NCBI GenBank assembly: GCA_018897875.1
Contig: JAHIKF010000156.1
Coordinates: 1 to 34,663 of the forward strand
DNA from: Pseudomonadota bacterium
GTDB lineage: Bacteria > Desulfobacterota > Desulfobaccia > Desulfobaccales > 0-14-0-80-60-11
Direction of reading: 5' to 3'
DNA length: 34,663 nucleotides
In this document: piece after piece, positions 7,054 through 34,663 of the stretch
Numbering within the stretch: the first letter of the stretch is position 1
Layout: every line of letters starts with the position of its first letter
Program-made: the position numbers and the translations under genes
The notes under the pieces: model-generated
The model's input: only the letters and a program-made list of their open reading frames with translations
Databases searched by the model: none
Told to the model about the DNA's origin: nothing

Positions 7054-7166
7054 GAGACCTCCCCTTTCAAGATGATCGTACTGCCATTATGAACGCAAAC
7101 TGGATAAATTACAAGGCTCATGAGGCCTCTAACGGATTTGGCGAAATTTTATGGCTCTCCCCGGGC

Positions 7167-8102: not shown

Positions 8103-8767
8103 ATCCGTAAATCCTCTCTGACGATGGTGCGCGGCCCGCCGTCCCGGGAAGTGCTCCAGTCTTTGGGATCCACGGGTTTTTCAAAGCGGTCCAGTTGCCC
8201 CAGGGTTTTCAGCCGTTCATAGATCAGCTCCCAGCCGCAGGGGATATCTTTGTTGATTTCGCACTTGCCCGCATCAGAGCCGCCGCAGGGGCCGTTGAGC
8301 ATGCGCTTGGAACAGCGGGCGATGGGGCAGATGCCGCCGGTCTCGGCCAGGATGCAGCGGCCGCACGCCTGACAGCGCTCGACATAGAGCCCCCGCTCCT
8401 CGTTGACCCCCAAAAAGCAGGTGTCCACCCCGGGGTAGATGATTTTGTTGTTATACATCTCCGCCATGTACTGGACCCCGCAGCCGCAGGCCAGGGAGAC
8501 CACGGCGTCATAGATGTCCATCTTGTCGGAGAGTTGCGCCAGATATTCCTTTTCGCACTGCCGAGTCAGGCTGGTTTCGTCAATCTGGGCCTGCTTGCCG
8601 GCCTGGGTGAAGTAGAGCCTGAGAGCCGAAGCCAGCACCTTGGCTTCTTTCATGCCGCCGGCTTCGCACACGGTAACGCAACCGTCGCAACCGACAATCA
8701 GCACTTTGGTGAAGTCTTTGACCTGGCCGAGGACTTCTTCCAACGGTTTGGGCACTGCCTTTATCAT
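8099..8767 (-). CDS. metV: MetV: Cys-rich MTHFR C-terminal-domain-like partner subunit of MetF
   Basis: 222-aa ORF with the hallmark ICPIARCSKRMLNGPCGG motif plus further Cys clusters (GCDGCVTVCE, CQACGRC). The start overlaps the mvhD stop (ATGA at 8764-8767). Confidence 0.85.
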   Translation of the reverse strand: MIKAVPKPLEEVLGQVKDFTKVLIVGCDGCVTVCEAGGMKEAKVLASALRLYFTQAGKQAQIDETSLTRQCEKEYLAQLSDKMDIYDAVVSLACGCGVQYMAEMYNNKIIYPGVDTCFLGVNEERGLYVERCQACGRCILAETGGICPIARCSKRMLNGPCGGSDAGKCEINKDIPCGWELIYERLKTLGQLDRFEKPVDPKDWSTSRDGGPRTIVREDLRI

Positions 8768-9227: not shown

Positions 9228-12200
9228 TCAGTATAAGGTTTTGATCTTGGCGCTGATCTGGTCGTCTTCAAAATGGGCCACCTGGATGACCTTGGCCGGA
9301 CATTCCGAGGCGCAGGTGCCGCAGCCCTGACACAGGGCCTCGTTGATCTCCGAGACGTTGTCCCGGTTGATCTGCGGGATGCCGTAAGGACAGGTCCGGA
9401 CGCACACCAGGCAGGCGGCGCACCGGTCCGGCTCCACATGCGCAGTGACCCCGCTGATGGTCTGGTTGACGTCCGCCAGGAACGCCCCGGCCCGGGCCGC
9501 CGCGGCCATGGCCTGGGCGATGCTCTCGCCGATAAGCTTGGGCGAATGCGCCATGCCGCACAGGAAGATGCCTTCCGAGGCAAAATCCACCGGCCGCAGC
9601 TTGGCGTGGGCCTCGATGAAAAACCCGTCGGCGTTCCGGGGGATTTTCAGGAGCGAGGCCAATTCCTCGGTATCATTGGCCCGGGCCCCGGCGCTCAACA
9701 CCACCGCGTCCACGGCCATGCTCACCGGGCGCTCCAGCACATGATCCACAAAGGTGACGCTCAACTGGCCGTTGTCATTAGTAACCTGGGGCAAACGGTC
9801 CGGATCGAACCGGGAAAAGAGCACCCCCTTGTCCCGGGCCTCCCGGTAAAAATCCTCCAGGAACCCATAGGTGCGCATGTCCCGGTAGAGGATCACCACG
9901 TCCATGTCGGGGTTGAGTTCCTTAAGCTGCAAGGCGTACTTCACCGCCCCCTGGCAGCAGATGCGGCTGCAGTTGGGGCTCTCCTCATTCCGGGAGCCCA
10001 CGCACTGCACCATGACCACCCGGTCCCACTTGGCGGCTTCATCCTTCGTTTTATGGAGAAAATCGCCCAGTTCCAATTGGGTCATCACCCGCGCGTGTTC
10101 CCCGTAGAGAAATTCCTTGGGGTGATACTCATGGGCGCCGGTGGCCACCACGGTGATCCCGTGGTCGATTTTCCGCTCGTACATGCCGGGCCCCACCAAA
10201 ACTTCGGTGGTGAAGTTGCCTTTGTAGCCGCTAAACCCCACCACCAGGGCCCCGGTGAGCACCTGGATCTTGGCGTGGCCCTTGACCCGCTCGATGAGCC
10301 CGTCCAGGTAGGCCTGAACGTCCAGGCCCTCGATAGTCTTGTGGACCCGGCGGCCTATGCCGCCCAACTGCGGCTCTTTCTCCAGGAGGATGGTCTCGAA
10401 TCCCTGGTCGCCCAGATTGAGGGCGGCGTTGAGGCCGGCGATGCCGCCGCCGATGACCAGGGCCCGCTGGTTGATGCTCAGGGGCTTTTCCAGCAACGGC
10501 TTGAGCAGGGAGGCCCGGGCCACCGCCATCCGCACCAGGTCTTTGGCCTTGTCCGTGGCCTTGTCGTGCTCCTTCATGTGCACCCATGAATCCTGGTTGC
10601 GGATGTTGGCCATCTCAAACAGATATTTGTTCAGGCCGGCGTCGATCAACGTATCCCGGAACAGGGCCTCGTGGGTGATGGGGGTGCAAGCCGCCACCAC
10701 CACCCGGTTGAGGTTGTGTTCCTCGATGATCCGGGTCATGGTGACCTGGGTGTCCTGGGAGCAGGTGAACAGGTTGTCTTCCACGTACGCCACGTTGGGC
10801 AGCGTCTTGGAGTATTCCGCCAGCGCCGGCACGTCTATGATACCGCCGATGTTGATGCCGCAGTTGCAGACGAACACCCCGATGCGTGGGGCGTCCTCCG
10901 GTTTGATGTCCTTGGGTGTGGGCGCCTGCCGGGTCTTGGTCTCGGTCCAGCGGACGTCCCCCAAAGAGGCGCTCACCGCCCCGGCCGCGGCGGATGCCTG
11001 CATGACCGATTCGGGAATGTCTTTGGGACCCTGCATGGCCCCGCAGACATAGATGCCAGGACGGCTTGCCGTCACCGGCGCCAAGGGCGAGGTGGCCACA
11101 AAATCGTGAGCGTTGGTCTCCACCTTCAGGGTCGCAGACAACTCCCGGGCGCCCTGGCTCACCTCCATGCCCACGGACAGCACGATCAGGTTAAAGGCCT
11201 CGGTCTTCTCGGCGCCGCTTTCATCCACAAACCGGATCTGCAAATCACCATCCGGCAAGGGATCGATGCTGTGGATGCGGGACCGGATAAACCGCACCCC
11301 GTGTTCGTCTTTGGCGCGGTTATAGTAGAGTTCGAAGTCTTTGCCGTAGGTCCGCATGTCCATGAAAAAGATGGCGGCGTCCAGCGGATACGGCGCGTGC
11401 TCCTTGGCGATCACCGCCTCTTTGATGGCGTACATGCAGCAGACCGAGGAGCAGTAGGTGTGGTATTTAACATCCCGGGAGCCCACGCATTGGAGCCAGG
11501 CGATCTTCTTGGGCTCGGCGTGGTCCGAAGGCCGGACCAGGTGGCCGCCGAAGGGCCCGGAGGCCGAGAGAATCCGCTCGAACTCCAGGGAGGTCACCAC
11601 ATTGGGCAAACTGGAGTAATGGTAAGTCTCGCACTTGACGGGACTGAAGGCCTCAAATCCCGGCGACAGGATCACGGCCCCCACCTGAACCTCTTTGGTT
11701 TCGGCGGCCATGGTGTGGTCGATGGCCCCGGCCTGGCAGGCGACGACGCACTGCATGCACTCGGAGCAGACCCCGCAATTGAGGCATCTCGCCGCCTCCC
11801 GCTGGGCCTGGTCCTCGGTGTAACCCTGGGCAATTTCATCAAAGCAGGCGCAGGTATGCTCCGGCGGCAGGGCCGCCATCACTTCCCGGGGCGCGCCGGT
11901 TTCATCTTTGGGAATCTCGGCCCAGCGTTTGTGGGCCTCCTCGCCGATGGCGCGGCCCTCAACCATGTCCACACGCCTAAGATAGCGGTCGATGGATTCC
12001 GCGGCTTCGATGCCGCCTCCCACCGCTTCGATGGCAATCCAGGGGCCGGTGTGCACATCGCCGGCGGCAAAGACCCCGGGCCGGGAGGTCTCGTAGGTTA
12101 CTTCATTGACTTCAATGGTGCCCCAGCGGCTCAGCTTGACGCCGCAGGCCGCTAAAGGCCCCTGGGCCGCTTCCTGGCCGATGGCCGGCACCACCATGTC

Positions 12201-13682
12201 CACCGGCAGTTCGAACTCGGCGCCTTCGATGGGCACCGGCTTGCGCCGCCCAGAGGCATCCGGTTCGCCTAATTCCATCTTTTGACAGATGAGGCCTGTG
12301 ACCTTGCCGTCGTGATCGGTGACCGTTCTCAAAGGCGCGGCCAAATAGACGATCTCTACCCCTTCGCAGGTGGCCTGCTCGACTTCATGAGCAAAGGCGG
12401 GCATTTCTTCCCGGGACCGGCGGTAGACGATGGTCACCTCGGAGCCCAGCCGCCGGGCGGTGCAGGCCACGTCGATGGCCACGTTGCCGCCGCCGATGAC
12501 CGCCAGCCGTTTCCCCACGGTCAGGGGTTCTTTCAGGTTCGCCCGGCGCAGAAATTCCACGCCCTGGATAACGCCCTGGGCCTCCTCCCTGGGAATCCCC
12601 AGGGGTTTGCCCACATGGCAGCCGATCCCCAGAAACACGGCCTTATAGCCTTCTTCCAGCAGCTCATCCAGGGTAAAATCCCGGCCCAGGGCGGTGTCGG
12701 TCTTCAGTTCCACCCCCAGGCGCAGGATGTTGTCGATTTCACGGTCCAGGATGTCCTTGGGCAGGCGGTAGTCGGGGATGCCCACCCGCAGCATGCCGCC
12801 GGCCTTAGGCAAGGCCTCCAGGATGGTGGGCCGGTAGCCTTTCAGCGCCAGGTGATAGGCGCAGGCCAAACCCGCCGGGCCGGAGCCGATGATGGCGACC
12901 CGGTCGCTTTTGGCCTCCACCAGCGGCGGCGAGATGGTGCTCAGGTCCACCTGGTCGGCGGCAAACCGCTTCAGATTGCAGATGGCCACGGACGCATCCA
13001 TTTCGGCCCGCCGGCACTTGTCCTCGCAGGGATGGGGGCAAACCCGGCCCAGGACCCCGGGCAGCGGCAGCCGCTCCATGATGAGCTTCACCGCCTCCTC
13101 GTATTTGCCCATCTTGATCAGCTGGACATAGCCCTGGACATTGATCTCCGCCGGACAGGTCAGGGAGCACGGGGCCCGGTCCAGCTTCTTGATGCCGAAG
13201 GCCGCCGGGATCGCCTGAGGATAGAGGCGATAGACCGCCTTCCAGTCGGCCAGGCCGGCGTTAAAGGCGTCCGACATGGTCACCGGGCAGACGTTGGCGC
13301 ACTCGCCGCACCCGGTGCACTTGGCAGGGTCAACATAGCGAGGCTGTTTCTTCAGGGTGACGCTGAGGTTTCCCGCCTCCCCGTCAATGGCCGCCACATC
13401 GGTGAGAGTGTGAATCTCGATATTCAAATGCCGGCCGCACTCCACCAGCTTGGGGGAGATAATGCACATGGAGCAGTCGTTGGTGGGGAAGGTCTTGTCC
13501 AACTGGGCCATAACCCCGCCGATGGCCGGCTTGGTTTCCACCAGATGAACATAGAAGCCCGAGTTGGCCATATCCAGGGCCGCCTGGATGCCGGCGACGC
13601 CGCCGCCCACCACCATCACCGCGCCCACGTTGCCGGAACGCTGGGTTGATTCCTGAGCCGTCACGTCTTTTTCTTGGGGCAT
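9228..13682 (-). CDS. hdrL: giant HdrA-family fusion flavoprotein (HdrL-like): HdrA-like FAD domain with inserted NfnB/GltD-like NAD(P)H:FAD module, followed by a complete second HdrA unit with C-terminal 2x[4Fe-4S] ferredoxin domain
   Basis: 1484-aa uninterrupted ORF. Unit 1: VVGGGVAGIQAALDMANSG, GGVMAQLDKTFPTNDCSMCIISPK, CTGCGECANVCP. Insert: GRVCPHPCEDKCRR, VAIIGSGPAGLACAYHL, LAVIGGGNVAIDVACTARRLG..VTIVYRRSREEMPA, VFAAGDV. Unit 1 continued: WLQCVGSRD...YCSSVCCMYAIKEA. Unit 2: RIGVFVCNCGINIGG, LVIGGGIAGLNAALNL, MVQCVGSRNEESPNCSRICCQGAVKYA, CAACLVCVRTCP, CQGCGTCASECP. Confidence 0.9.
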   Translation of the reverse strand: MPQEKDVTAQESTQRSGNVGAVMVVGGGVAGIQAALDMANSGFYVHLVETKPAIGGVMAQLDKTFPTNDCSMCIISPKLVECGRHLNIEIHTLTDVAAIDGEAGNLSVTLKKQPRYVDPAKCTGCGECANVCPVTMSDAFNAGLADWKAVYRLYPQAIPAAFGIKKLDRAPCSLTCPAEINVQGYVQLIKMGKYEEAVKLIMERLPLPGVLGRVCPHPCEDKCRRAEMDASVAICNLKRFAADQVDLSTISPPLVEAKSDRVAIIGSGPAGLACAYHLALKGYRPTILEALPKAGGMLRVGIPDYRLPKDILDREIDNILRLGVELKTDTALGRDFTLDELLEEGYKAVFLGIGCHVGKPLGIPREEAQGVIQGVEFLRRANLKEPLTVGKRLAVIGGGNVAIDVACTARRLGSEVTIVYRRSREEMPAFAHEVEQATCEGVEIVYLAAPLRTVTDHDGKVTGLICQKMELGEPDASGRRKPVPIEGAEFELPVDMVVPAIGQEAAQGPLAACGVKLSRWGTIEVNEVTYETSRPGVFAAGDVHTGPWIAIEAVGGGIEAAESIDRYLRRVDMVEGRAIGEEAHKRWAEIPKDETGAPREVMAALPPEHTCACFDEIAQGYTEDQAQREAARCLNCGVCSECMQCVVACQAGAIDHTMAAETKEVQVGAVILSPGFEAFSPVKCETYHYSSLPNVVTSLEFERILSASGPFGGHLVRPSDHAEPKKIAWLQCVGSRDVKYHTYCSSVCCMYAIKEAVIAKEHAPYPLDAAIFFMDMRTYGKDFELYYNRAKDEHGVRFIRSRIHSIDPLPDGDLQIRFVDESGAEKTEAFNLIVLSVGMEVSQGARELSATLKVETNAHDFVATSPLAPVTASRPGIYVCGAMQGPKDIPESVMQASAAAGAVSASLGDVRWTETKTRQAPTPKDIKPEDAPRIGVFVCNCGINIGGIIDVPALAEYSKTLPNVAYVEDNLFTCSQDTQVTMTRIIEEHNLNRVVVAACTPITHEALFRDTLIDAGLNKYLFEMANIRNQDSWVHMKEHDKATDKAKDLVRMAVARASLLKPLLEKPLSINQRALVIGGGIAGLNAALNLGDQGFETILLEKEPQLGGIGRRVHKTIEGLDVQAYLDGLIERVKGHAKIQVLTGALVVGFSGYKGNFTTEVLVGPGMYERKIDHGITVVATGAHEYHPKEFLYGEHARVMTQLELGDFLHKTKDEAAKWDRVVMVQCVGSRNEESPNCSRICCQGAVKYALQLKELNPDMDVVILYRDMRTYGFLEDFYREARDKGVLFSRFDPDRLPQVTNDNGQLSVTFVDHVLERPVSMAVDAVVLSAGARANDTEELASLLKIPRNADGFFIEAHAKLRPVDFASEGIFLCGMAHSPKLIGESIAQAMAAAARAGAFLADVNQTISGVTAHVEPDRCAACLVCVRTCPYGIPQINRDNVSEINEALCQGCGTCASECPAKVIQVAHFEDDQISAKIKTLY

Positions 13683-13724
13683 AATTCTATCCCTTATAAG
13701 CCTGATAAAATTCTCTGGAGTCCG

Positions 13725-14597
13725 CTATAAACCGGCCGCCGCCAGGATCGACGGTAGTTTGTCCTCCCACCCGATGGTGGAGACGAGCACTCCCGGGAAT
13801 CCCTGCTTTTTGACCGCAGCCAGGAATTCCGAGGCGATCTGCACACACTCCCGCACCCGGTCGGAGCTTTTATGAATCCGGGTGACGAAAGCTTCCGGGA
13901 TTTTCATCTCCATGTGGGCGTTGATGTAGCGGGCCATGCCCACACTCTTCAAGAGCATAACCGTGGGGATGATGGCCGCCTGGCGCTTGCCCACCTGATG
14001 CCGGAAATTTTTCAGAACTTCCACGTCGAAAACCGGCTGGGTGGTGAAAAACCGGGCCCCGGCGGCAATCTTTTGATCCAGGTCCGCCAACTCCTGCTTC
14101 AAGGCTCCGGCCTCGCTGGTCACCTTGACGGTGGCGCCCACCAGGAATTGCGGCGACCCTTTGAGATCCACCCCGGCCAGGTCCCGGCCGGTCTGCAAGG
14201 TTTGAATGGCCGCCAGCAAGTCCAGGAGATTTAGGTCGTTAACCGCCTTGGCCTGATGATGGTCGCCATGGGTGATTTCATCGCCGGACACCACCATGAC
14301 ATTGGCAACCCCCAGGGCCTGCGCCGCCAACAGGTCGCCTTGCAGCGCCAGGCGGTTGCGGTCCCGGCAGCAGACCTGCAGCACCGTTTCCAGCCCCTTG
14401 GTCTGCAACAGGAGCGCCCCGCCCAGAGAACTCAAGCGCATCACGGCGTTGTTCATCTCCGGGACCACAAAGGCGTCCACCATGCGTTTGACGCTGGTGG
14501 CGGCTCCCACCATGTCGGAAACATCCGTGCCTTTGGGCGGCTCGATCTCCGCCAGAATGACGAATTCGCCGGAAGTCAATTTCTCTTGTAATGGCAT
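13725..14597 (-). CDS. second methylenetetrahydrofolate reductase family paralog, with no adjacent MetV-like partner
   Basis: 290-aa ORF. MTHFR-like FVILAEIEPPKG, QVCCRDRNRLALQGDLL, VMVVSGDE, RFFTTQPVF. Clearly diverged from the 311-aa metF at 7167-8102. Confidence 0.85.
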   Translation of the reverse strand: MPLQEKLTSGEFVILAEIEPPKGTDVSDMVGAATSVKRMVDAFVVPEMNNAVMRLSSLGGALLLQTKGLETVLQVCCRDRNRLALQGDLLAAQALGVANVMVVSGDEITHGDHHQAKAVNDLNLLDLLAAIQTLQTGRDLAGVDLKGSPQFLVGATVKVTSEAGALKQELADLDQKIAAGARFFTTQPVFDVEVLKNFRHQVGKRQAAIIPTVMLLKSVGMARYINAHMEMKIPEAFVTRIHKSSDRVRECVQIASEFLAAVKKQGFPGVLVSTIGWEDKLPSILAAAGL

Positions 14598-14615
14598 CGC
14601 GGTCCCTCTCTGAGA

Positions 14616-15035
14616 TTATTGGGATGATCGCACCATGGCGTTCGAGATAGCTAAAATCAGATCATCCGGGCCAAAGGAGTTCACATGATAGTAAAAAATC
14701 CCCTGTTGCCGGATACGGCTTTCCTGTTCCGGATTGTTTTCATCCGCAGTAATGATGATGGGCAGCTTGCGGTCCAGGCCCTTGATGATGGAGATGGCCT
14801 CGTAACCCATATCTTCCGGCAGGCGCACATCCATGACCAGCACATTGATCTTTTCACTCTGCAGGGTCATGAGCAGGTCTTTGATGTTGTCCACGGCTTT
14901 GAGCCGGTGTCCCTGTTCGGTGACCCAGAAATCCAGATTCTGCGACAAGGCCCCGCCGCGTTCGGCGATCAACAGTGTGCCACCCTTTTCCGTCATCATT
15001 GGCGTCCCGGAATTCCCGAACCGAGTTACTGCCAC
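14616..15035 (-). CDS. degenerate (pseudo-)receiver domain protein, first gene of the operon
   Basis: Receiver-like fold: VLVMDVRLPEDMG keeps the Asp and PIIITAD keeps the Thr. The N-terminal acidic pair is replaced (LLIAERGG) and the conserved Lys position reads YHVNSF. The start is ambiguous: GTG at 15035 has no SD, and the ATG ATG at 14999 has only a weak SD. Confidence 0.6.
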   Translation of the reverse strand: MAVTRFGNSGTPMMTEKGGTLLIAERGGALSQNLDFWVTEQGHRLKAVDNIKDLLMTLQSEKINVLVMDVRLPEDMGYEAISIIKGLDRKLPIIITADENNPEQESRIRQQGIFYYHVNSFGPDDLILAISNAMVRSSQ

Positions 15036-15238
15036 TGTGATTGGTTGGTAATTGGTTCTTGTTTAAATAATGCAAGGCCTATGCCCTGAAGCGGGCGGCG
15101 GAAACCCCGCGCCCAGACTCATCCTTGGGAAAATAAGTTCAAGCTGTCAGGGGAGAATGCGGGAAGTTTTGGGGCAGAGAAAATAAGGCTACTTACATAT
15201 CTCATTGATATTGCAGCTTTTTAATAGATATGGGTAAA

Positions 15239-15266
15239 ATTGCCACATTTGTTACCATATTGCCAC
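15239..15266. promoter_or_regulatory. direct repeat ATTGCCAC x2 with 20-nt phasing in the operon leader (candidate regulator site)
   Basis: ATTGCCAC at 15239-15246 and at 15259-15266. A third TTTGCCAC is at 15558-15565. No function can be assigned. Confidence 0.25.
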
Positions 15267-15370
15267 GTGGCTCAGGAGGCCTAGGCCCAGGTTTGGTTTC
15301 CGGGCCAGGCGCCCCAGCCGGAGTCTCAATCGCTAAACCAGATGGCTATTAGCTAACCGGAGCCTTTGGT

Positions 15371-15408
15371 GTTCCCCGGCGCTGCCGGCGCCAGGGAACA
15401 ACGGCTAC
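15371..15408. repeat. REP-like hairpin (GTTCCCCGGCGC-tgcc-GGCGCCAGGGAAC) followed by CTAC
   Basis: Imperfect palindrome at 15371-15398, CTAC at 15405-15408. Same design as the other GC hairpins in the window. Confidence 0.4.
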
Positions 15409-15531
15409 GGAAAAAATCTTTTTTTTCTGTCCCCCGAAACCGCGCCAATGGCATCAACACATTGATATAATGCGCTATTTCCCTTCTCACCGCCATACCT
15501 GACGATTCCGCGGGTTTTTCCTCAACCTGCC

Positions 15532-15561
15532 AGATTATTTGACAACCCGCTAGATTATTTG
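15532..15561. promoter_or_regulatory. direct repeat AGATTATTTG x2 with 20-nt phasing (candidate regulator site)
   Basis: AGATTATTTG at 15532-15541 and at 15552-15561, inside the 666-bp non-coding leader. Confidence 0.25.
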
Positions 15562-15643
15562 CCACTGCGCGGCTGCCTCGGACCATCATCTGACACCGGG
15601 CAACACTGTGACGTCACCATATACCAGATTGCAGTCAAAGGGT

Positions 15644-15692
15644 GGCACAGGCTTTCCAGCCTGTGCCGGGGCAGGCTAAAGCCTGCGGCTAC
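15644..15692. repeat. tandem REP-like hairpins with GTAG/CTAC, immediately downstream of trmO
   Basis: GGCACAGGC-tttcca-GCCTGTGCC (15644-15667), GCAGGC-taaa-GCCTGC (15671-15686), CTAC at 15689-15692. The first stem is related to the 5497-5517 hairpin. It may double as a transcription stop for trmO, but no U-tract follows on the minus strand. Confidence 0.45.
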
Positions 15693-15701
15693 AAAAAATA
15701 G

Positions 15702-16190
15702 TCAGTCCATAAACCGGCCGTCGTCCCTGGCGCCTTGGAGCCGGTCCAGATTTTCAGCCAGCCAGCCGCTGGTCGCCCCGTCCCGGCGATCAAACCGGTC
15801 CACGTAAGGCTTGATGTCCAAAAGCGGCGTGCCGTCCACGATATCCACCTCCCGGATGTAGAGCCGCGTGCCGTCGATGCGCTCCAACCGCACGGTGGAA
15901 ATGCCGATGGGGTTCGGTCGGGCCGGCGCCCGGGTGGCAAACAGGCCGCGTTTTTGGTCATCCAGAAAGGGCTGCACCAGGAGGGAAAATCCCGGGGCCA
16001 GATGAAAGTAGTAGACCAAAATGAGGTGGGAAAAACCTTCCAGGTCTCTAAGGCCCTCCCCATATTCCGGGAACACCTCCACCATCCCCTGGGTCCCGGC
16101 CGCCGCGCCCGGTTGAATAGGCGTGCCCGGCGGTGCCTTAAAAGGCGAACGCACCGTGCCGATGGGCCTTAAAACAATCTCGGTTGGCAT
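15702..16190 (-). CDS. trmO: tRNA (t6A37) methyltransferase TrmO/TsaA (YaeB) family
   Basis: IVLRPIGTVRSPF...EGFSHLILVYYFH...RAPARPNPIGISTVRLERIDG..LYIREVDIVDGTPLLDIKPYV is the TsaA-like fold signature. The Met at 16190 has GGAG 7 nt upstream. The track ORF extends to 16304 without family support. Confidence 0.85.
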   Translation of the reverse strand: MPTEIVLRPIGTVRSPFKAPPGTPIQPGAAAGTQGMVEVFPEYGEGLRDLEGFSHLILVYYFHLAPGFSLLVQPFLDDQKRGLFATRAPARPNPIGISTVRLERIDGTRLYIREVDIVDGTPLLDIKPYVDRFDRRDGATSGWLAENLDRLQGARDDGRFMD

Positions 16191-22267: not shown

Positions 22268-23053
22268 ATGAAAAAAATCGGATTGGCGCTGGGTTCGGGC
22301 GGAGCCAAAGGAATCAGCCACATAGCTTTTCTCAAGGCCCTGGATGAATTGGGCGTGCGGCCGGCGGTCATCGCCGGTACCAGTATTGGGGCCGTCATCG
22401 GCGGCTTTTATGCCGCCGGGGTCTCCGGGGCTCGGCTGGAGCAACTGCTCAAGGAAATCGGTTTCCGGGACCTCTACAAGATTGTCCTGGACTTCTCCAT
22501 TCTGAGCCAGTCCGCCATCTTCACCGGCAAAGGCGTGGAAGATTTTCTCTCCCGTGAGATTCCGGCCCGCACCTTCGAAGAAATGGAGATTCCCTTTAAA
22601 GTCGTAGCCACGAATTTTTGGGACCGCGGCCAGGTGGTATTCGAAAGCGGCAGCCTCACCAACGCCATCCGGGCCTCCATGGCCATGCCGGCAGTATTCG
22701 AACCGGTGCGCCTCAACGACATGGTCCTGGTTGACGGCGGCGCAGTGAACCCCTTGCCTTACGACCTCATTCAATCGCAGTGTGATCTGACCATTGCCAT
22801 TGATGTCTCCGGCGAAAAGACCTATGCCCCGGGTAATCCGGTCCCCAATATGGTGGAAAGCATCCTGTCCACCTTCCAGATCATGCAAGCCTCCATTGTG
22901 GAGGCCAAGAGGAAACTGTTGCCGCCGGATATCTATGTCAAACCGGCTTTGACCAATATCCGGGTGCTGGACTTTTACCGCTATAAAGCAATCCTGGCGG
23001 GAGTGCAGGAAGAAGTGCAACGCTTTAAGGAAGACTTGCAAAACCTGCTTTAG
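22268..23053 (+). CDS. patatin-like phospholipase (RssA-type)
   Basis: Start at MKKIGLALGSGGAKG (oxyanion GGxK/R), nucleophile elbow GTSIGA, catalytic Asp in LVDGGAVNPLP. GGAGG lies upstream. The longer track ORF (from 21809) overlaps the preceding gene in another frame. Confidence 0.9.
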   Translation: MKKIGLALGSGGAKGISHIAFLKALDELGVRPAVIAGTSIGAVIGGFYAAGVSGARLEQLLKEIGFRDLYKIVLDFSILSQSAIFTGKGVEDFLSREIPARTFEEMEIPFKVVATNFWDRGQVVFESGSLTNAIRASMAMPAVFEPVRLNDMVLVDGGAVNPLPYDLIQSQCDLTIAIDVSGEKTYAPGNPVPNMVESILSTFQIMQASIVEAKRKLLPPDIYVKPALTNIRVLDFYRYKAILAGVQEEVQRFKEDLQNLL

Positions 23054-23178
23054 AATTGGGTTGCAAGAATATTTTTATAACATCATTATTCCATCTACAG
23101 AGGGAAGGCGGAGCGTATCCGCGGGTGCGCCCCGACGTTTATAGCATTTGCCAAAAATTCCTTCCCATTGATAATTTT

Positions 23179-23274
23179 TAAATCCCCCTAAATCCCCCTT
23201 TTTCAAAGGGGGACTTTCAAGGGAATTCCGCCAAGTTCCCCCCTTTGGTAAAGGGGGGGTAGGGGGGATTTAGG
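23179..23274. repeat. pair of inverted G5/C5-rich units of about 37 nt (AAATCCCCCTAAATCCCCCTTTTTCAAAGGGGGACTT family)
   Basis: The unit at 23180-23216 (+) and its inverted copy at 23238-23274 each contain a CCCCC-TTTxxAAA-GGGGG hairpin. The same unit pair occurs at 29346-29430. Confidence 0.6.
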
Positions 23275-23421
23275 TTCTTGGAGTATGTGCCATAAAGGAA
23301 AAAACTTTTGGCAACTGCTATAATTCGTTCTTTTTTACATGCAGCTCGTTGATATTTTCTCTGGTTTGGAACCCCGGTCATGAGGGACGGGAGGCCGGCA
23401 GCACCGGACAGGGAGGCAGGT

Positions 23422-24405
23422 ATGGGGCAAGAGACCTGGGCTATCGGGGTTGACTTGGGCGGCACCAAGGTGGAAGTGGCGGTGGTGGACGCGGGCGGCA
23501 AAATTCTCCAGCGGCTCAAGCAGCCCACCCACGTTGAGACCGGCCCGGAGCGCATCATGGCGGCCATCGCCGGAATGGTGCGGCAGTTGCAGGACCGGGG
23601 CCCGCAGACGCCCCCCGCCGGCGTCGGGGTGGGAGTGGCCGGCCAGGTCAACGCGGCCACCGGGGTGGTCAGGTTTGCGCCCAACCTCAACTGGCGCGAG
23701 GTGCCTTTACAAGACCGGCTCCAGACGGCCCTCACGTTGCCGGTGGTGGTCACCAACGACGTCAGGGCCGCGACCTGGGGCGAATGGCGCCACGGCGCCG
23801 GCCAGGGAGCCCAGGACCTCATCTGCCTGTTTATCGGCACCGGCATCGGCGGCGGGGTGGTGAGCGGCGGCCGGATGCTCGAAGGCTGCACTAACACCGC
23901 CGGGGAACTGGGGCACATCACCACCGACCTCAACGGCCCCCCCTGCACCTGCGGCCACCGGGGCTGCCTCGAGGCCCTGGCCGGGGGCTGGGCCATTGCC
24001 CGCCGGGCCCGGGAGGCCATCCGGGACGCCCCCGCCGCGGGCAAGGCCTTCCTTCAAGCCGCGGGGCTCAAAGAACCGGTGGCGCCCGAAGACGTCAACG
24101 CCCGGGTGGTGGCCGCCGCGGCCCGGGCCCACGACCCCCTGGCCCGCATCCTGGTGGACGAGGTGGCCCGGGCCCTGATCGCCGGGACGGTAAGCCTGGT
24201 CAACGCCTTTAACCCCTGCCGCCTGATCCTGGGCGGCGGCGTCATGCAGGGGCTGCCGGAGCTTACGGAGCGCATCGAGGCGGGCATCCGTGGCGCCGCA
24301 CTGAACGCCGCCATAGAGGGCTTAGAGGTCCTGCCGGCCAGGCTTAAAGGTGATGCCGGGGTAGTGGGGGCCGCCACCCTGGCCATCCGGTCCTTCGCAC
24401 CCTAA
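23422..24405 (+). CDS. ROK-family sugar kinase (glucokinase-like)
   Basis: IGVDLGGTKVEVAVVD (ATP-binding N-terminus), NDVRAATWGE, IGTGIGGGVV, ROK Zn motif GELGHITTDLNGPPCTCGHRGCLEALAGG. GGGAGG lies 7 nt before the ATG at 23422. Confidence 0.85.
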   Translation: MGQETWAIGVDLGGTKVEVAVVDAGGKILQRLKQPTHVETGPERIMAAIAGMVRQLQDRGPQTPPAGVGVGVAGQVNAATGVVRFAPNLNWREVPLQDRLQTALTLPVVVTNDVRAATWGEWRHGAGQGAQDLICLFIGTGIGGGVVSGGRMLEGCTNTAGELGHITTDLNGPPCTCGHRGCLEALAGGWAIARRAREAIRDAPAAGKAFLQAAGLKEPVAPEDVNARVVAAAARAHDPLARILVDEVARALIAGTVSLVNAFNPCRLILGGGVMQGLPELTERIEAGIRGAALNAAIEGLEVLPARLKGDAGVVGAATLAIRSFAP

Positions 24406-24483
24406 AATAATCCGACAAAGACCCCTCAGACCTCGAGCCCGACGCCCTGCGCCAGTTCCTTTCTTTCTAACTTGTTAACAATA

Positions 24484-24524
24484 AAAAAGCCCCGATCCTG
24501 ATTTTGGAACGGGGTTTTATTTTG
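24484..24524. terminator. bidirectional rho-independent terminator between the convergent ROK kinase and molybdoenzyme genes
   Basis: AAAAAAGCCCCGATCC-tgatttt-GGAACGGGGTTTTATTTT: the stem is flanked by an A-run upstream and a T-run downstream, so it can terminate both strands. Confidence 0.6.
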
Positions 24525-24781
24525 CGGTTGCCCTGTGCCTAAGAGAAATTAATAAACAAAAAATCTAAATATGCATATCCTCCATGGTGGTTGGAGCAAA
24601 GCATATCAGAGACTCTCTGTAAACATCAACTAATTAAGGGGTCATTATCCAATTACAAGAATCAAGAATAATGACCTGCCGGCCAAGTTCACACTCTGCT
24701 ATTCTTGTTTTAGAAATTTGCTTCCCAAATTCATGCAAGGATAAGCCAATGCTTCTTTCTTGATTTCAGTATCTGGGAGAG

Positions 24782-26977
24782 TCACACTTTACCCCCTTTG
24801 CACATGATTCCCCTCATCTGATGATGCCCGTTGAATTCTTCGAATGGAGGGCCATCCGAAATGATCGTATTCACGTTGTATTCGTAGATGCCGTGATCCG
24901 GACTGGTGATCTCCGGGTACCACCATCCTTGAGAAATGGAGACCACATGGGGGTGCATTTCAGGCACAAGGCGGGCCTTGCCCTTTACCCTCTCTCCCTT
25001 CATCTGGTAGGACTCCAGCCACATCCAGTCCCCTTCTTTGATACCCAGGCCTTGAGCTGTCTGGGGATGGACCTCGATCTCAGGCTCAGAGGCCAGCTTC
25101 CGTAATGATGGACAATCAAATCGTTCCGAATTTTGATAGAACCGGAGCCGGTGGTGCACCATGATGAGGGGATATTCTTTCCAGATATCAGGTCTGCTCA
25201 GAGGGCTCACCGGGTCTTCCCGGTAATTGGGCAGCGGGTCGTAATTTAGTTTTTTAAACCAATACGAATAAAGTTCAACCTTACCTGTGGGGGTATTCCA
25301 TTTCCAACCAGGAAGTTCATATTTTTTAAAGTCCATTGGGAATATCATTTGGTGTTGGGGCTGCGCCATGAGCTCTTGATATGTGGTCCCGACAGGCTCA
25401 AGCATCCAGTCGTGGAACTCCTCTATGTTTTCCCATGGAACATCTGCCCCCATCCTCTTGCCCAGCTCAATGACGATTCTCATATCGTCCCAGGCCTCGC
25501 CCGGAGGGTCGACCACTTTCGGGCATGCTACGATGCTGTTCCCATAGGGAGCCCCGGGCGCCCCACTTAGCGTGTGATTGAGGGAGTCGATCTCGGCTGC
25601 GTGCGCTGCAGGCAGCACCAAGTCAGCAACTTCGCATGTTGGCGTCATGAAAAGATCGGCCACTACCATGAAGTCAAGTCCCTTGAGGATATTCCACAGC
25701 CTTTTGGGGTTGGCGTAATGCGCCATAGGATTGGTGCCGGGGACGTAGAGCCCTCGCACTTTCCCCTCTTCCATATACTCCAGGAGCGTCGGGTAGTGAC
25801 TGTTGTAGTCGAACCAGCTGATCTCCTGGGGGCCATTGTAGATAGGGTAATCTCTGTAGCCGGGCCTCTTGGCCTCCAAGTCGGGCGACCGGCGCCAGTT
25901 GCGCATCATCCAATAGATGTTTCTAAACCCGTTGAGAGTACCGTTTAGATACTCCCTAGGCCCAAGGGCGGCGGCCGTGGGAATATCTCCCGGTGTGTGA
26001 AGGATGTTTCCTCCGACGGAATCCAGATCCCCCTTGATGCTGAATATGCATGTGATGGCCCGGCAAGTCTGTGTGGAATTGAGGGATTGGCCGTCCACGC
26101 CCAGCCGGGTATGAATGCACGAGGGCCGCGTCCTGCCGTATAGCCTCGCAGCCTCGATGATCTGCTCCTTAGGCACCCAGGTAATTTGTTGAGCCCGCTC
26201 TGGAGTCCACTCGGCCACCCTTTGCTTGAGTTCCTCAAAGCCGAGGCACTGCTGAGCTACGAATTCTCTATCGTAAAGACCTTCCTCGATCATCACGTTG
26301 AGCCAGGCTAGGGCCAGGGCGCCGTCCGACTGAGGCCGAACCCTGAGCCACATGTCCGCCCTCTTAGCGGTCTCTGTGAAACGGGGATCGATCACAATCA
26401 CCTTGGCCCCCCTTTTCTGGGCCTCAAAGATGCGCCTCGCCTTGACGGGCCGGGTATCAACCACGTTGGCGCCCCAGATGACGATGCACTTGCTGTTCTC
26501 GTAATCGATCCGGGTCTCCCAGGTGGTCCATTCTCCAAAGGTCATGAAATCGGAGATGCAGCTGCACTGAGAGCACTGGTAGTTGGCATCCAGGATGTTG
26601 GGAGTGTTCAGGAACTTTGCCAAGGAGTGGCTGGCGTCACAGGTTCTTTCCTTGTGGTGGGAGGATATTCCAACGCAGTTTGCCTCAGGACCAAAGCGGT
26701 CCCTGATGTCGGCAAATTTGCCGGCCATAAGATCCAGAGCCTCATCCCAGCTAATCCGAACCCATTTGCCAGTTCCCTTTTCCCCCGTGGCCTTTAATGG
26801 GTATTTGAGCCGGCGGGGATGATGTAGGGTTTCAGCCATATAAAGGCCTTTTTCACACCCGGGATGCAAAACCTTCGCAAGCTGGCCATCCTTGACCTTG
26901 CACTCCAGAAAGCATCTCTCATGGCAGACTTGACAAACGGTCTCCACAGTAGCGGTAAATTTATTATTTCTGTCCAT
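24782..26977 (-). CDS. cytoplasmic molybdopterin/tungstopterin-guanine-dinucleotide enzyme (DMSO-reductase/MopB superfamily), acetylene-hydratase-like clade
   Basis: 731-aa ORF with a perfect SD (GGAGGTGATC). N-terminal [4Fe-4S] motif CQVCHERC...C and no twin-arginine signal. Several blocks resemble my recollection of Pelobacter acetylenicus acetylene hydratase: LYDREFVAQQCLGFEELKQRV, PTGKVELYSYWFKKLNYDPLPNYREDP, KEYPLIM, HPQTAQGLGIKEGDWMWLES. Monocistronic. Confidence 0.85.
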   Translation of the reverse strand: MDRNNKFTATVETVCQVCHERCFLECKVKDGQLAKVLHPGCEKGLYMAETLHHPRRLKYPLKATGEKGTGKWVRISWDEALDLMAGKFADIRDRFGPEANCVGISSHHKERTCDASHSLAKFLNTPNILDANYQCSQCSCISDFMTFGEWTTWETRIDYENSKCIVIWGANVVDTRPVKARRIFEAQKRGAKVIVIDPRFTETAKRADMWLRVRPQSDGALALAWLNVMIEEGLYDREFVAQQCLGFEELKQRVAEWTPERAQQITWVPKEQIIEAARLYGRTRPSCIHTRLGVDGQSLNSTQTCRAITCIFSIKGDLDSVGGNILHTPGDIPTAAALGPREYLNGTLNGFRNIYWMMRNWRRSPDLEAKRPGYRDYPIYNGPQEISWFDYNSHYPTLLEYMEEGKVRGLYVPGTNPMAHYANPKRLWNILKGLDFMVVADLFMTPTCEVADLVLPAAHAAEIDSLNHTLSGAPGAPYGNSIVACPKVVDPPGEAWDDMRIVIELGKRMGADVPWENIEEFHDWMLEPVGTTYQELMAQPQHQMIFPMDFKKYELPGWKWNTPTGKVELYSYWFKKLNYDPLPNYREDPVSPLSRPDIWKEYPLIMVHHRLRFYQNSERFDCPSLRKLASEPEIEVHPQTAQGLGIKEGDWMWLESYQMKGERVKGKARLVPEMHPHVVSISQGWWYPEITSPDHGIYEYNVNTIISDGPPFEEFNGHHQMRGIMCKGGKV

Positions 26978-27145
26978 AGATCACCTCCCTGTAAACTGAG
27001 ATTATGCGGCAATCTTGTCCGCCGCAGTCCAAAAATGGTCTTGGGGACCTCATCTTGCAGGACTTTCACGGATAATGCACCGGGAACGCAACATTGTCCA
27101 TTGAAATTTTTCAGGGGTATAAATAATGGGGCAGCAGGCATCTCT

Positions 27146-27161
27146 TGCTACCGATTGGCCA
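27146..27161 (-). promoter_or_regulatory. candidate sigma54 (-24/-12) promoter upstream of the molybdoenzyme gene
   Basis: The minus strand reads TGGCCAATCGGTAGCA against the consensus TGGCACG-N4-TTGCW. The GG and GC dinucleotides are at the correct spacing and 9 of 12 defined positions match. It lies about 170 nt upstream of the ATG. Confidence 0.3.
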
Positions 27162-27183
27162 GCCAACGGCAATTTTCTTGGAG

Positions 27184-27268
27184 GGGCGGACCTATGTGTC
27201 CGCCCTGAATTGAGGCCGCACAGGTTGAAAACCTGCGCCACCAAAGGCGGCGGGCGCACAAGCCCGCC
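27184..27268. repeat. cluster of three REP-like GC hairpins
   Basis: GGGCGGAC-ctatgt-GTCCGCCC (27184-27205), an imperfect CGCACAGGTT-gaaa-AACCTGCGC (27216-27238), and GGCGGGC-gcacaa-GCCCGCC (27247-27268). Confidence 0.5.
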
Positions 27269-27293
27269 CACGGGAAAACCAGACCGGCCCGCC

Positions 27294-28427
27294 TCAGTCC
27301 TTTTCTTCTAATTCCACCTTGAGAGAGAAGAAATCCAACAGGTCTTTCAAGCTTACCAGCCCCACCAGGCGGCCGTTTTCCACCACCATCAGCCGGCTGG
27401 CCGCGCTCTGGTTCATCATGGACAGGGCCTTGATGGCGTCGGTGTCAGGCGAGATGGTATTTTCCTCCGAACAGGGGCTGGCCGCTTCCCGGATGGTCTC
27501 CCGGTCCCACGCCTCCCGGGGAATATCCTTCACCTGCCGGGTGGTGATGCAGCCCGCCAGCTTATCCCCGGCCATGACCGGAAACATCTTATGATGATAT
27601 TTGTAGATATAATCTTCCACCAGTTGGGCCACGGTGATGGAATCCGGTACCGTCACCGGGTGGGCGTTCATGAAGCGGCGCACCGGTTCGCCCTCCAAGG
27701 CCTTGCGCACCAAAAGCTGCTGGTACGACATCTGGGCCGCGCTCCTTAAAAACATGCCGATCAAGAACATCCACACCCCGCCGATAACGTTGCCGCCGAT
27801 GAACTGCAGGACGCCCAGGAAGATGAGTCCGAGGCCGAAGGCGGTGCCGATGGACGAAGAGACCCGGGTAGCCCAGCGCAGGTTGTCCTTGGCGCCCCAC
27901 AGGATGGAGCGCAGCACCCGCCCGCCGTCCAGGGGAAAAGCCGGTAGGAGATTAAAGGCCGCCAGGATGAGGTTGATATAGAACAGGTAATAGGTGACGG
28001 CATTGACCGGAGTACTCCAGCCGCCAGCCTCTCCCCCACGGTAGACCAGGTAAAATACGCCCCCGATGGCGAGGCTGGACAGGGGGCCGGCGATGGCCAT
28101 CATGAATTCGGCCTTGGCGGTGGGGGGCTCATCCCCCATCTCCGCCACCCCGCCGAAGATGAACAGGGTGATGCCCTTCATGGACATGCCGTATTGCCGG
28201 GCCACCAGAGAATGACAGAACTCATGGGCCACGATGGAGACGAAGAGCCCCAGGGCCCCCACCACCCCCATGGTCCAGTAAGTCATCGGGGTGAGGTTCG
28301 GATACCAGTCGGGAAAGGCCCCTTTGGCCAGGGACCAGGTGACCAGCACCGCGATGACGAGCCAACTTGCATCGATCTTGACCTCGAACCCGAAAAGCTT
28401 AAACAGTTTCATGGACCTGCCGAACAT
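27294..28427 (-). CDS. site-2 protease family (peptidase M50) membrane metalloprotease with C-terminal CBS pair
   Basis: HEFCHSLVARQYG (HExxH), AFNLLPAFPLDGGRVL (second metal-ligand motif), multiple TM segments, then two CBS-like repeats. The SD GGGAGG is embedded in the end of the upstream gene. Confidence 0.9.
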   Translation of the reverse strand: MFGRSMKLFKLFGFEVKIDASWLVIAVLVTWSLAKGAFPDWYPNLTPMTYWTMGVVGALGLFVSIVAHEFCHSLVARQYGMSMKGITLFIFGGVAEMGDEPPTAKAEFMMAIAGPLSSLAIGGVFYLVYRGGEAGGWSTPVNAVTYYLFYINLILAAFNLLPAFPLDGGRVLRSILWGAKDNLRWATRVSSSIGTAFGLGLIFLGVLQFIGGNVIGGVWMFLIGMFLRSAAQMSYQQLLVRKALEGEPVRRFMNAHPVTVPDSITVAQLVEDYIYKYHHKMFPVMAGDKLAGCITTRQVKDIPREAWDRETIREAASPCSEENTISPDTDAIKALSMMNQSAASRLMVVENGRLVGLVSLKDLLDFFSLKVELEEKD

Positions 28428-33965: not shown

Positions 33966-34030
33966 CGGGGAACGGATAACCTTGGAGATTGATGAAGTTC
34001 CGTTGATTCAAAGGGCAGGGAGAATTATCA

Positions 34031-34062
34031 TAAAGGGTGGGCCAGGCCCACCCTTTATTTAT
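34031..34062. terminator. rho-independent terminator (bidirectional geometry) after the sigma54 activator gene
   Basis: TAAAGGGTGGGCC-a-GGCCCACCCTTTATTTAT: a long GC stem flanked by an A-run and a T-run. Confidence 0.6.
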
Positions 34063-34211
34063 CGGTAATCAATAGAAATTTATCTGGCCACGGTCAAATA
34101 AAGATCATAGTAAATCTGATATGCATAATTATAACCCAAACTGGATCTGAGATGCAGGTATGCTCTGTATATCAGCATCAGCATGATGCCATCAAAGACT
34201 GGAGGTGGAGC

Positions 34212-34325
34212 ATGAAAGTTTCCAAGGCCGTCAACCTATTTTATAGCTTCATCAGGCTTTTCCCAAAGACCAAAAACCGAAAATCATTTTCATCTGACAG
34301 CTTCAGGTCACCCGGTTACCAACCG
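34212..34325 (+). CDS. possible small basic protein (37 aa), unsupported beyond its RBS
   Basis: GGAGGTGGAGC precedes ATG: MKVSKAVNLFYSFIRLFPKTKNRKSFSSDSFRSPGYQP*. It overlaps the 3' end of the convergent ORF by 10 nt. No family recognised. Confidence 0.2.
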
Positions 34326-34663
34326 TAATCGAAAGGTCCCCACAGGCCCCAATTCATCGCGGCGTCCATATTCATCTCCGCGGTCATGCGCTGCTCATCG
34401 GCAATCCGCTCCTGGATCATCAACTGCTGGTAGCGTTGATAATTCTCCTCGTTGCCGATATACAGGCATTTGCAGGACAGTGCATCGGCGTAAATATAAT
34501 AGACTTTATCACCACGCTGGTGGGATGTCAGCTTCCGCTGGGTCATGGTCTGGAGATGGTCCGCCTTCTCGGGGGTATCGGCATACTGCACCCTGAACCC
34601 GGCGGCCGCCAGCCAAACCTCCGTACCCTTGGCATCACTCTTCTTGACCTCTTGGACCACGGC
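34316..34663 (-). CDS. hypothetical protein, 5'-truncated by the window edge
   Basis: Open frame from the window end to the stop at 34316 (...YIYADALSCKCLYIGNEENYQRYQQLMIQERIADEQRMTAEMNMDAAMNWGLWGPFDYGW*). GC is lower than in the core genes. No family recognised. Confidence 0.5.
   Translation of the reverse strand, partial: AVVQEVKKSDAKGTEVWLAAAGFRVQYADTPEKADHLQTMTQRKLTSHQRGDKVYYIYADALSCKCLYIGNEENYQRYQQLMIQERIADEQRMTAEMNMDAAMNWGLWGPFDYGW

Follow-up and report, generated by a model that had tools for sequence, protein, structure and literature searches.

Two kinds of described enzyme in the MopB (DMSO reductase) superfamily stand closest to the gene analyzed here. The acetylene hydratase (AH) of Pelobacter/Syntrophotalea acetylenica (PDB 2e7z) is a cytoplasmic protein without a twin-arginine (Tat) signal or a partner subunit, in which a hydrophobic ring formed by Ile14, Ile113, Ile142, Trp179, Trp293 and Trp472 is said, after work by Seiffert et al. 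in 2007, to position the acetylene. Its Asp13 is specific to a small AH subfamily and the D13A variant is inactive (PMC12096430, which also names Trp179 and Trp472). The second kind is represented by the soluble catechol dehydroxylases Cldh and Dodh (Maini Rekdal et al. 2020, PMC7028382). The Gordonibacter-type dehydroxylases have no Tat signal, are paired with a small 4Fe-4S protein and adjoin transporters, and homologues in environmental aromatic degraders were mentioned in the same work (PMC7028382). We have analyzed contig JAHIKF010000156.1 (34,663 nucleotides, assembly GCA_018897875.1, a Pseudomonadota bacterium of the GTDB phylum Desulfobacterota), referred to below as the window, and specifically a gene in it that codes for a MopB protein of 731 amino acids (aa), the query. 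Our analysis indicates that the query is a foreign, stand-alone MopB enzyme that appears to belong to a rare and distinct clade related both to AH and to the catechol dehydroxylases, and that its most likely function is to reduce an imported organic anion.

The open reading frame (ORF) starts with ATG and its product matches two Pfam families, PF00384 (E = 4e-43, 148 bits against a cut-off of 24) and PF01568 (E = 8e-12, 45.6 bits, cut-off 26.8). With the AF2 model of the protein (pLDDT 93.7, pTM 0.93), Foldseek found 179 PDB matches at E <= 0.001, and all 50 among the matches listed were MopB enzymes. The best one was AH (TM 0.86, 3.5 Å rmsd), followed by the formate dehydrogenase FdhH (0.76). 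Sequence comparison also put AH first among PDB entries (32% identity and E = 2.7e-83, covering query residues 13-695; 29-32% identity among our comparisons), and the two proteins are of similar length, so that the likeness to AH noted in the initial annotation is confirmed as far as solved structures are concerned. In the HMMER alignment the query residues Cys15/18/22/41, Lys43 and Cys135 fall on AH Cys9/12/16/46, Lys48 and Cys141, and AH Arg606 is conserved too; both proteins would thus have a single N-terminal [4Fe-4S] cluster on C-x2-C-x3-C...C, a lysine between cluster and pterin and a cysteine as metal ligand. Cys135, which lies in the Cys-rich stretch where a metal ligand had been expected, is kept in 116 of 120 homologues. 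The two extra cysteines of YQCSQCSC are found only in the nearest relatives, most other clade members having CSKGG. Domains, overall four-domain fold, N-terminal Fe-S motif, lysine relay and metal ligand together mark the query as a member of the MopB superfamily. The protein is predicted to be cytoplasmic because the stretch before its first Fe-S cysteine (residue 15) contains no twin-arginine motif, which would indicate a Tat signal. We looked in the window for a gene of an Fe-S or membrane partner subunit near the MopB gene and found none, nor was there a regulator gene near it; the earlier description of a 731-aa MopB ORF with neither Tat signal nor partner gene is confirmed by the ORF, the Pfam matches and the neighbors, a convergent ROK kinase gene (23380-24405, + strand) and an upstream M50/CBS peptidase gene (27294-28427, - strand).

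The differences with AH are concentrated at the active site. The query motif CQVC-H-ERC aligns with CQSC-D-INC of AH, which makes His19 the counterpart of Asp13, as had been proposed. Besides, the six ring residues (I14/I113/I142/W179/W293/W472) correspond to E20/H107/S136/P177/T290/L470 in the query, so that none (0/6) is kept and polar or small residues replace the hydrophobic ones; the view that the active site is altered relative to AH therefore stands. His107, at the position of AH Ile113, is unique to the query's clade. In place of hydrophobic side chains the predicted pocket has many His and Lys residues (H19, H107, H108, K109), which would suit a polar or anionic substrate. The query is thus predicted not to hydrate acetylene, since all six residues of the hydrophobic ring have been replaced. 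That it could be a genuine acetylene hydratase after all, being a presumed cytoplasmic monomer with a Cys ligand whose best PDB match by sequence and by fold is AH, has next to no chance in our estimation: a histidine stands where the D13A replacement inactivates AH, the ring is gone, and AH lies outside the query's clade in the tree described below. We have accordingly rejected this identity.

In order to place the protein we used a homologue search over 5.8 billion protein clusters, with residue tallies on the top 120 homologues. The hits fell in tiers: one cluster at 96% identity, 14 at 57-71% (the close clade) and hundreds at 36-47%, the last from metagenome-assembled genomes (MAGs) of Desulfobacteraceae, Bathyarchaeia, Chloroflexi and Thaumarchaeota. 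Even the members of this outer tier resemble the query much more than AH does (476 bits or more versus about 285). At the column of AH Asp13, 100 of the 109 aligned homologues have His and none has Asp. Therefore the His is no substitution peculiar to the query gene, and the description of a histidine replacing the catalytic aspartate has to be turned around, the Asp of AH appearing to be the exception and His the general state of the wider group. A neighbor-joining (NJ) tree (Kimura distances, 693 columns, 100 bootstraps, few reference sequences) recovered the close clade with 100% bootstrap, joined it to a sister clade (P0016-P0040) with 93%, and joined both to a clade of GltD fusions with 78%, while AH, the Coriobacteriia protein L012, Cldh/Dodh/Gor3 and P0103/P0113 formed a separate and weak group (39%). 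These groupings place the query neither in the AH subfamily nor in the clade of characterized dehydroxylases. Our reading is that the query clade is rare and well defined (about 15 clusters at 57-96% identity), with an invariant signature of C-H-E/D, S-S-H107-H108-K109, S136 and T290, and that it probably lies inside a large uncharacterized "C-x2-C-H" group, sister to the branch that holds AH and the soluble gut catechol dehydroxylases.

None of the NCBIfam profiles compared with the query reached its cut-off. Formate dehydrogenase alpha (TIGR01591) gave 302.6 bits versus a cut-off of 666. In formate dehydrogenases a His stands next to the SeCys or Cys ligand; in the query Ser136, not His, follows Cys135. 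The thiosulfate/polysulfide reductases PhsA/PsrA (243.5 bits versus 694) were rejected too, there being no Tat signal and no PsrB/PsrC partner genes, and so were the assimilatory nitrate reductases NasC/NasA/NarB (189.7/1100 and 107/1000 bits) and DmsA, BisC and the other NCBIfam equivalogs, all far below their cut-offs. The kinship with transhydroxylases that had been suggested is distant (E = 9e-11 to pyrogallol transhydroxylase). In spite of the low scores, NarB/NasA and FdhF do resemble the query: they are cytoplasmic MopB enzymes made of a single subunit, their metal ligand is Cys or SeCys, and they have one [4Fe-4S] cluster. They exchange electrons through soluble carriers, and are a precedent for a redox MopB enzyme without partners. 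Literature searches for characterized members (AH-like proteins with Desulfatiglans; MttB with molybdopterin and glutamate synthase; molybdopterin desulfonation with TauE) returned nothing relevant.

The comparison with the catechol dehydroxylases was carried out with the sequences of Cldh, Dodh and Gor3 (the Gordonibacter-type sequence directly before Cldh) recovered from the supplementary alignment of PMC7028382. All three carry G-C-H-E/N-G-C, that is, a His at the position of AH Asp13, and the triplet C-H-E is common to the query clade, Cldh and Gor3. By BLASTP the query scored 327 bits with Gor3, 296 with Cldh, 285 with AH and 282 with Dodh, against 109 for a Psr-like outgroup, so that the preference for the label "AH-like" over others does not hold. 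There are further likenesses: identity to the characterized dehydroxylases is about 30% (28.6-30.9%), the Tat signal is missing in both, and the dehydroxylase genes, like those of most relatives of the query, stand beside solute transporters, with many substrate-specific paralogues per genome. On the other hand, Cldh and Dodh lack the first Fe-S cysteine, which the query has, carry Arg at AH position 48 where the query clade has Lys, keep Trp293 (as AH does) where the query has Thr, are some 60-70 aa longer and are paired with a small 4Fe-4S protein, whereas the SSHHK segment is unique to the query clade. In the window there is neither a small 4Fe-4S partner gene nor a transporter gene next to the query. 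A transporter does adjoin the gene in most related loci; a small ferredoxin gene was found only in two of them (L001 and L017), not directly adjacent. The query might still be a soluble catechol or phenol dehydroxylase of this very type, removing a ring hydroxyl from an aromatic acid. The scores, the C-H-E motif, the absent Tat signal and the transporters beside relatives' genes, as for dodh, are in agreement with this, and so are the Amidohydro_2 and sulfotransferase genes in the cluster of the query's 85% ortholog and the near-identical copies of the gene in a Desulfatiglandaceae MAG. The Amidohydro_2 family includes hydroxybenzoate decarboxylases, and the Desulfatiglandaceae are a lineage of aromatic-compound degraders. 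The homologues mentioned in environmental aromatic degraders (PMC7028382) would point the same way. We nevertheless regard it as improbable, with an identity of only about 30%, no monophyly with Cldh/Dodh in the NJ tree, the replaced Trp293 and AH position 48, the retained first cysteine, the HHK segment and the lack of a gene for a small 4Fe-4S subunit next to it.

About a dozen relatives of some 1180 aa carry GltD-like domains (Fer4_20, Pyr_redox_2). In one of them, P0055, a GltD-like module for NAD(P)H, FAD and two [4Fe-4S] clusters is located between C7-x2-C10-H11-x2-C14 and the fourth cluster cysteine (C514-I-K-G). These fusions (P0035, P0055 and others) are about 40% identical to the query in the MopB part, have the same C-x2-C-H motif, Lys and Cys ligand, and branch next to the query clade and its sister clade. 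They differ from the query in the flavoprotein module inserted inside the Fe-S domain and in their operon, which codes for a 190-aa protein of no known function, a LivK-type ABC importer, a corrinoid protein, a full-length, non-pyrrolysine MttB-family methyltransferase and a pterin methyltransferase, and looks like an uncharacterized Mo/W step linked to methylated-amine metabolism. The insertion of a flavin/NAD(P)H/Fe-S unit in the Fe-S domain has only one sensible reading, electron flow to the Mo/W centre. This nearby clade is therefore a hint of redox chemistry, and weakens the hydratase-type chemistry without redox change that the initial annotation had implied. Such an AH-style reaction on another polar or anionic substrate, in which the [4Fe-4S] cluster would tune the metal and His19 would serve as general base in place of Asp13, is the main rival of a reductive function, although we consider it unlikely. 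AH is the closest solved structure, the query would also be a monomeric cytoplasmic protein for which the window has no partner gene, it shares the Fe-S motif, the Lys and the Cys ligand with AH, and most related loci have no adjacent electron-transfer gene. However, the Asp and the hydrophobic ring that define AH are both missing, the only characterized enzymes with His at the Asp13 position are reductive dehydroxylases, the proteins of the nearby clade carry an NAD(P)H flavoprotein module, and AH is, to our knowledge, the sole known non-redox member of the MopB superfamily.

The gene neighborhoods of the relatives give a recurring picture of partner-less cytoplasmic MopB proteins within uptake and catabolism clusters for small organic anions. 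In locus L001 (1-12181) three close-clade paralogues stand beside two SSF symporters. The same locus contains MobA, MobB, MoaA and two MoeA genes, a gene for a 93-aa ferredoxin, and FdhD, which is a hint that the cofactor carries a sulfido ligand. PhnS-like ABC systems adjoin close-clade genes in six loci (L002, L003, L009, L013, L023 and L025), an NMT1/SsuA-like ABC system is found in L013, and LysR with TctBCA in L014. Tandem paralogues (two or three), each with its own importer, appear in L001, L002 (7665-12172) and L013 (2633-10653). Several substrate-specific paralogues per genome would be a parallel to the catechol dehydroxylases. The 85% ortholog of the query is a 731-aa MopB protein upstream of P0005 in L002/L003, and its cluster reads, in order, sigma-54 activator, SsuA-like (SsuA/TauA-like) 450-aa protein, ABC importer with PhnS-like binding proteins nearby, ortholog, paralogue, second ABC importer, Amidohydro_2, sulfotransferase and Amidohydro_2. 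Directly downstream of MopB, a TauE/TSUP permease gene was found in L008, L018, L021, L022 and L030. In the sister clade, P0026 (L015 7001-15863, also L016) sits in a GntR-regulated cluster with a SucCD-like CoA ligase, TRAP DctPQM, a family III CoA-transferase and a URO-D-family protein, preceded upstream by two CoA-transferases, an OYE flavoprotein and a TauE gene; the cluster may encode a pathway of organic-acid catabolism that depends on a stand-alone MopB enzyme. The neighbors of P0030, also in the sister clade, include genes for a small ferredoxin, for proteins of the xanthine dehydrogenase family and for an MFS transporter.

The reading that we prefer, to which we give a probability of about 0.5, is that an imported organic anion is reduced with two electrons from ferredoxin, in a deoxygenation or dehydroxylation; we infer both the donor and the substrate. 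A soluble single-subunit enzyme would hold a Mo- or W-bis(pyranopterin guanine dinucleotide) cofactor, with Cys135 as the metal ligand, and one [4Fe-4S] cluster (Cys15/18/22/41) linked to the pterin through Lys43. A dedicated transporter would import the small anionic organic solute, a soluble ferredoxin-type donor would pass two electrons through the cluster to the metal, and the metal would strip an oxygen atom or a hydroxyl group from the substrate, with His19/Glu20 and the clade-specific His107-His108-Lys109 possibly supplying protons and binding the anion. The small ferredoxin genes in the clusters of L001 and L017 speak for such a mechanism. Several points weigh against it. An electron-donor or partner gene was found neither in the window nor in most related loci. 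AH keeps the cluster and the Lys without net redox change, so that their conservation is no proof of redox, and the GltD fusions, which share only some 40% identity with the query, may serve another function. Outside the Coriobacteriia dehydroxylases the His-type group has no characterized member, and the deep nodes of the NJ tree are weak (39-60%) with few references. The window copy has no permease, so that access of the substrate in this host is left unexplained, and the likeness of the transporters to sulfonate and phosphonate binding proteins is weak, far below the curated cut-offs. Finally, the active-site roles were read off the alignment to AH, not off a cofactor-bound model.

The transporters also bear on two other readings. 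In one of them the protein would be a cytoplasmic ferredoxin-dependent reductase of an inorganic oxyanion, similar to NarB/NasA, which together with the permease would make a two-gene cassette for detoxification or assimilation. A single-subunit MopB protein with one cluster, as in NarB, a minimal mobile pair with an anion permease that resembles resistance cassettes, and the NMT1-type and SBP_bac_11-type binding proteins of related loci would agree with it; but the NasC and PhsA models are far from being reached (190 bits of 1100 and 243 of 694), SSF, TctABC and TRAP importers and CoA-ligase or transferase neighbors point to organic acids, and multiple paralogues per genome, each with its own transporter, suggest a diversity of organic substrates. 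We find this very doubtful. The other reading, speculative and quite improbable, is that the clade represents a new class of Mo/W enzymes for organosulfur anions that has spread as a two-gene MopB + TauE/TSUP cassette. It could reduce or cleave compounds such as taurine, isethionate, sulfoacetate or arylsulfonates to sulfinate or sulfite, which if true would provide these products to sulfite-respiring Desulfobacterota and Thermodesulfovibrionia. The hints are independent of one another and individually weak: TauE/TSUP directly downstream in five copies, the NMT1/SsuA-like ABC system of L013, the SsuA/TauA-like 450-aa protein, PhnS-like proteins and sulfotransferase gene in the cluster of the 85% ortholog, and the His/Lys-rich predicted pocket. 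The ligand of PhnS, 2-aminoethylphosphonate, is the phosphonate analogue of taurine. We know of no described Mo/W-dependent enzyme that transforms sulfonates, and our literature search found none.

The MopB gene was horizontally acquired, a conclusion that is strongly supported, and best so by the finding of about 2.3-2.7 kb around the gene at some 95-99% nucleotide identity in at least 7 unrelated genomic contexts, which is stronger evidence than GC content; here the initial annotation was borne out. By blastn, a "Deltaproteobacteria" MAG from the PowLak16 sample (L007) shares only positions 24684-27119 of the window, at 98.5% nucleotide identity, and a Desulfatiglandaceae MAG (L008) matches positions 24730-27122 at 97.6% and 24412-24730 at 96.2%. 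Outside these blocks both are unrelated to the window. Five metagenome contigs (L018-L022) have only the MopB segment in common with it, at 95-96% and with ragged ends. The flanks differ in each copy: Prim-Pol/AAA_25 and HNH in L008, two tyrosine recombinases in L021, acyl-CoA dehydrogenase and CobA in L018, histidine kinases in L019, and HD and Usp proteins in L007. Mobile-element genes are found close to the segment in two of these, the tandem tyrosine recombinases at 3616-5506 of L021 and the genes of the Prim-Pol/AAA_25 replication protein and HNH endonuclease at 756-3222 of L008. Between its two matched blocks, L008 has a 1.2-kb stretch with a TauE/SafE (TSUP) permease gene (Pfam E = 2.7e-32). 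The window matches both sides of this stretch, therefore the two differ by a clean 1.2-kb indel at about 24730. L018, L021, L022 and L030 leave the window sequence at 24730/24731 too and continue into the permease gene. The TauE genes of the five permease-bearing copies have 96-97% amino-acid identity, and the gene is absent from the window, L007, L019, L020 and L026. Defined cassette ends, att sites and target duplications were sought at the L007 and L008 junctions and none was found, the ends being ragged across copies. The mobile unit appears to be small, MopB with or without the TauE/TSUP anion permease, and the window would hold the permease-less form, inserted between the ROK and M50/CBS genes.

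The dN/dS values between the window copy and those of L007 and L008 were 0.13-0.22, indicating that the gene is under purifying selection. Besides, the identical protein in the same M50-MopB-ROK context was found in three independent assemblies (GCA_022013585.1, GCA_018896435.1 and one Logan assembly), so the arrangement is no assembly artefact. The missing permease and the absence of a regulator or partner nearby could suggest a decaying passenger gene without function in this host, but an intact ORF with a strong ribosome-binding site (RBS), the dN/dS values and the maintenance of the same protein and context in those assemblies make this highly improbable.

Public records label relatives as "acetylene hydratase" or "thiosulfate/polysulfide reductase" (P0001 has the latter label at JGI), names at odds with the family tests reported above. 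In a phylogeny of MopB the "AH family" was read as evidence for ancient use of acetylene (PMC10100899). Our residue tallies suggest that most of the neighborhood of this family carries His rather than Asp and would lack the acetylene pocket. What emerges is a large group of cytoplasmic Mo/W enzymes that stand alone, are linked to transporters and are found in anaerobic organisms (Desulfobacterota, Thermodesulfovibrionia, Bathyarchaeia, Chloroflexi). The gut catechol dehydroxylases are their sole characterized cousins, and in one branch a flavoprotein module is inserted, unusually, within the Fe-S domain. Because the query clade has a distinct invariant signature (C-H-E plus SSHHK) and moves as a tiny cassette, it is a tractable target to look for a new anaerobic transformation of organic anions. 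The features located are collected in Table 1.

Table 1. Position of the features of the MopB locus (window coordinates unless a locus is named) and the basis of each assignment.
Feature	Position	Strand	Basis
MopB coding sequence; predicted stand-alone cytoplasmic Mo/W-bis-pterin [4Fe-4S] enzyme of an uncharacterized His-type clade	24782..26977	-	ORF, Pfam, AF2, Foldseek, dN/dS
Shine-Dalgarno GGGAGGTGA, strong, ending 3 nt 5' of the ATG	26981..26989	-	sequence reading
N-terminal [4Fe-4S] (FS0) motif codons, Cys15-x2-Cys18-His19-Glu20-x-Cys22	26912..26935	-	HMMER alignment to 2e7z, column tallies
His19 codon (AH Asp13 position)	26921-26923	-	HMMER alignment to 2e7z
Cys41 codon, fourth cluster cysteine; Lys43 just after	26855-26857	-	HMMER alignment to 2e7z
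Cys135 codon, predicted Mo/W ligand, first Cys in CSQCSC	26573..26575	-	aligns with AH Cys141
His107-His108-Lys109 codons (SSHHK)	26651..26659	-	invariant alignment columns in the query's clade
Largest segment shared with other genomes (2711 bp), the transferred unit	24412..27122	.	blastn vs L007, L008
Indel junction; about 1.2-kb TauE/TSUP stretch present in L008, missing from the window	24730..24731	.	blastn, junction alignment
TauE/SafE (TSUP) genes after MopB	L008 9215-10231; L018 7530-8681; L021 8240-9400; L022 8248-9394; L030 589-1713		
GltD-fused MopB P0055 locus	L004 8001-11552 (also L005, L006)		conserved operon
AT-rich non-coding spacer (376 bp, 40.7% GC)	24406..24781	.	GC and ORF scan
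Hairpin between an A-run and a T-run, plausible bidirectional intrinsic terminator, inside the shared segment	24480..24524	.	RNA fold
Three GC-rich hairpins just past the M50/CBS gene, in host sequence beyond the transferred segment	~27183..27268	.	folds of -12 to -20 kcal/mol
Sigma-70-like promoter candidate TGGACA-17 nt-CATTAT	27072..27100	-	scan; 2 matches vs 2.5 expected by chance

The composition of the gene also stands out. With 54.2% GC it is the lowest of the 20 genes of the window (62.1 +/- 3.4% for the other 19, z = -2.3), in agreement with the lower-GC pocket described before, and its GC3 is 65.7% versus 78.3% (z = -1.9). The codon-usage distance is ordinary (z = 0.29), so that of the composition check that had been proposed only the GC side deviates, and codon usage was discarded as uninformative about transfer. 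The shared segment as a whole has 52.1% GC versus 60.4% in the remaining window, and the HdrL-like gene 63.3%. Other lower-GC stretches of the window (48-55%) are located at 3201-4600, 14401-15800, 22801-23400 and 34001-34600, including part of a PAS histidine kinase gene and the patatin/ROK intergenic region.

Between the ROK and MopB genes, the non-coding spacer is indeed AT-rich and no ORF longer than 34 aa was found in it, although it is longer than the 250 bp or so first given. The hairpin in it (24486-24518) folds at -18.3 and -14.8 kcal/mol on the two strands and is a plausible bidirectional terminator for the two convergent genes, as had been proposed, though it was not among the matches of a simple consensus terminator scan. 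On the other side of the gene, the three hairpins described as REP-like exist, but no further copies of their region were found elsewhere in the window, and they do not form a repeated family there. An Rfam search of the gene flanks for riboswitches (including Moco) and small RNAs gave no match at E <= 1.

The sigma-70-like candidate is a weak one as a promoter. L007 and L008 conserve it, and it falls in the part that L022 has in common with the window, but L018, L019 and L021 share the window sequence only from 27044/27055 and do without it. Reading 26978-27293 (- strand) by eye, we found no sigma-54 promoter with a correctly spaced -24/-12 element. A short inverted repeat (GCGGC-N10-GCCGC, 27010-27030, - strand) in the predicted 5' leader, downstream of the promoter-like site and upstream of the RBS, could be an operator or a leader structure. 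Farther away in the window, a 377-aa ORF at 7089-8222 (+ strand) has no Pfam match, its GC3 (0.606) is the lowest of the window and its codon-usage distance is high; it could be of foreign origin or no real gene. The HdrL-like gene (9228-14597, - strand) codes for a 1484-aa flavo/Fe-S protein (Pyr_redox_2, Fer4_20, FAD_binding_2, Fer4) and is located directly upstream of a MetF-type methylenetetrahydrofolate reductase gene.

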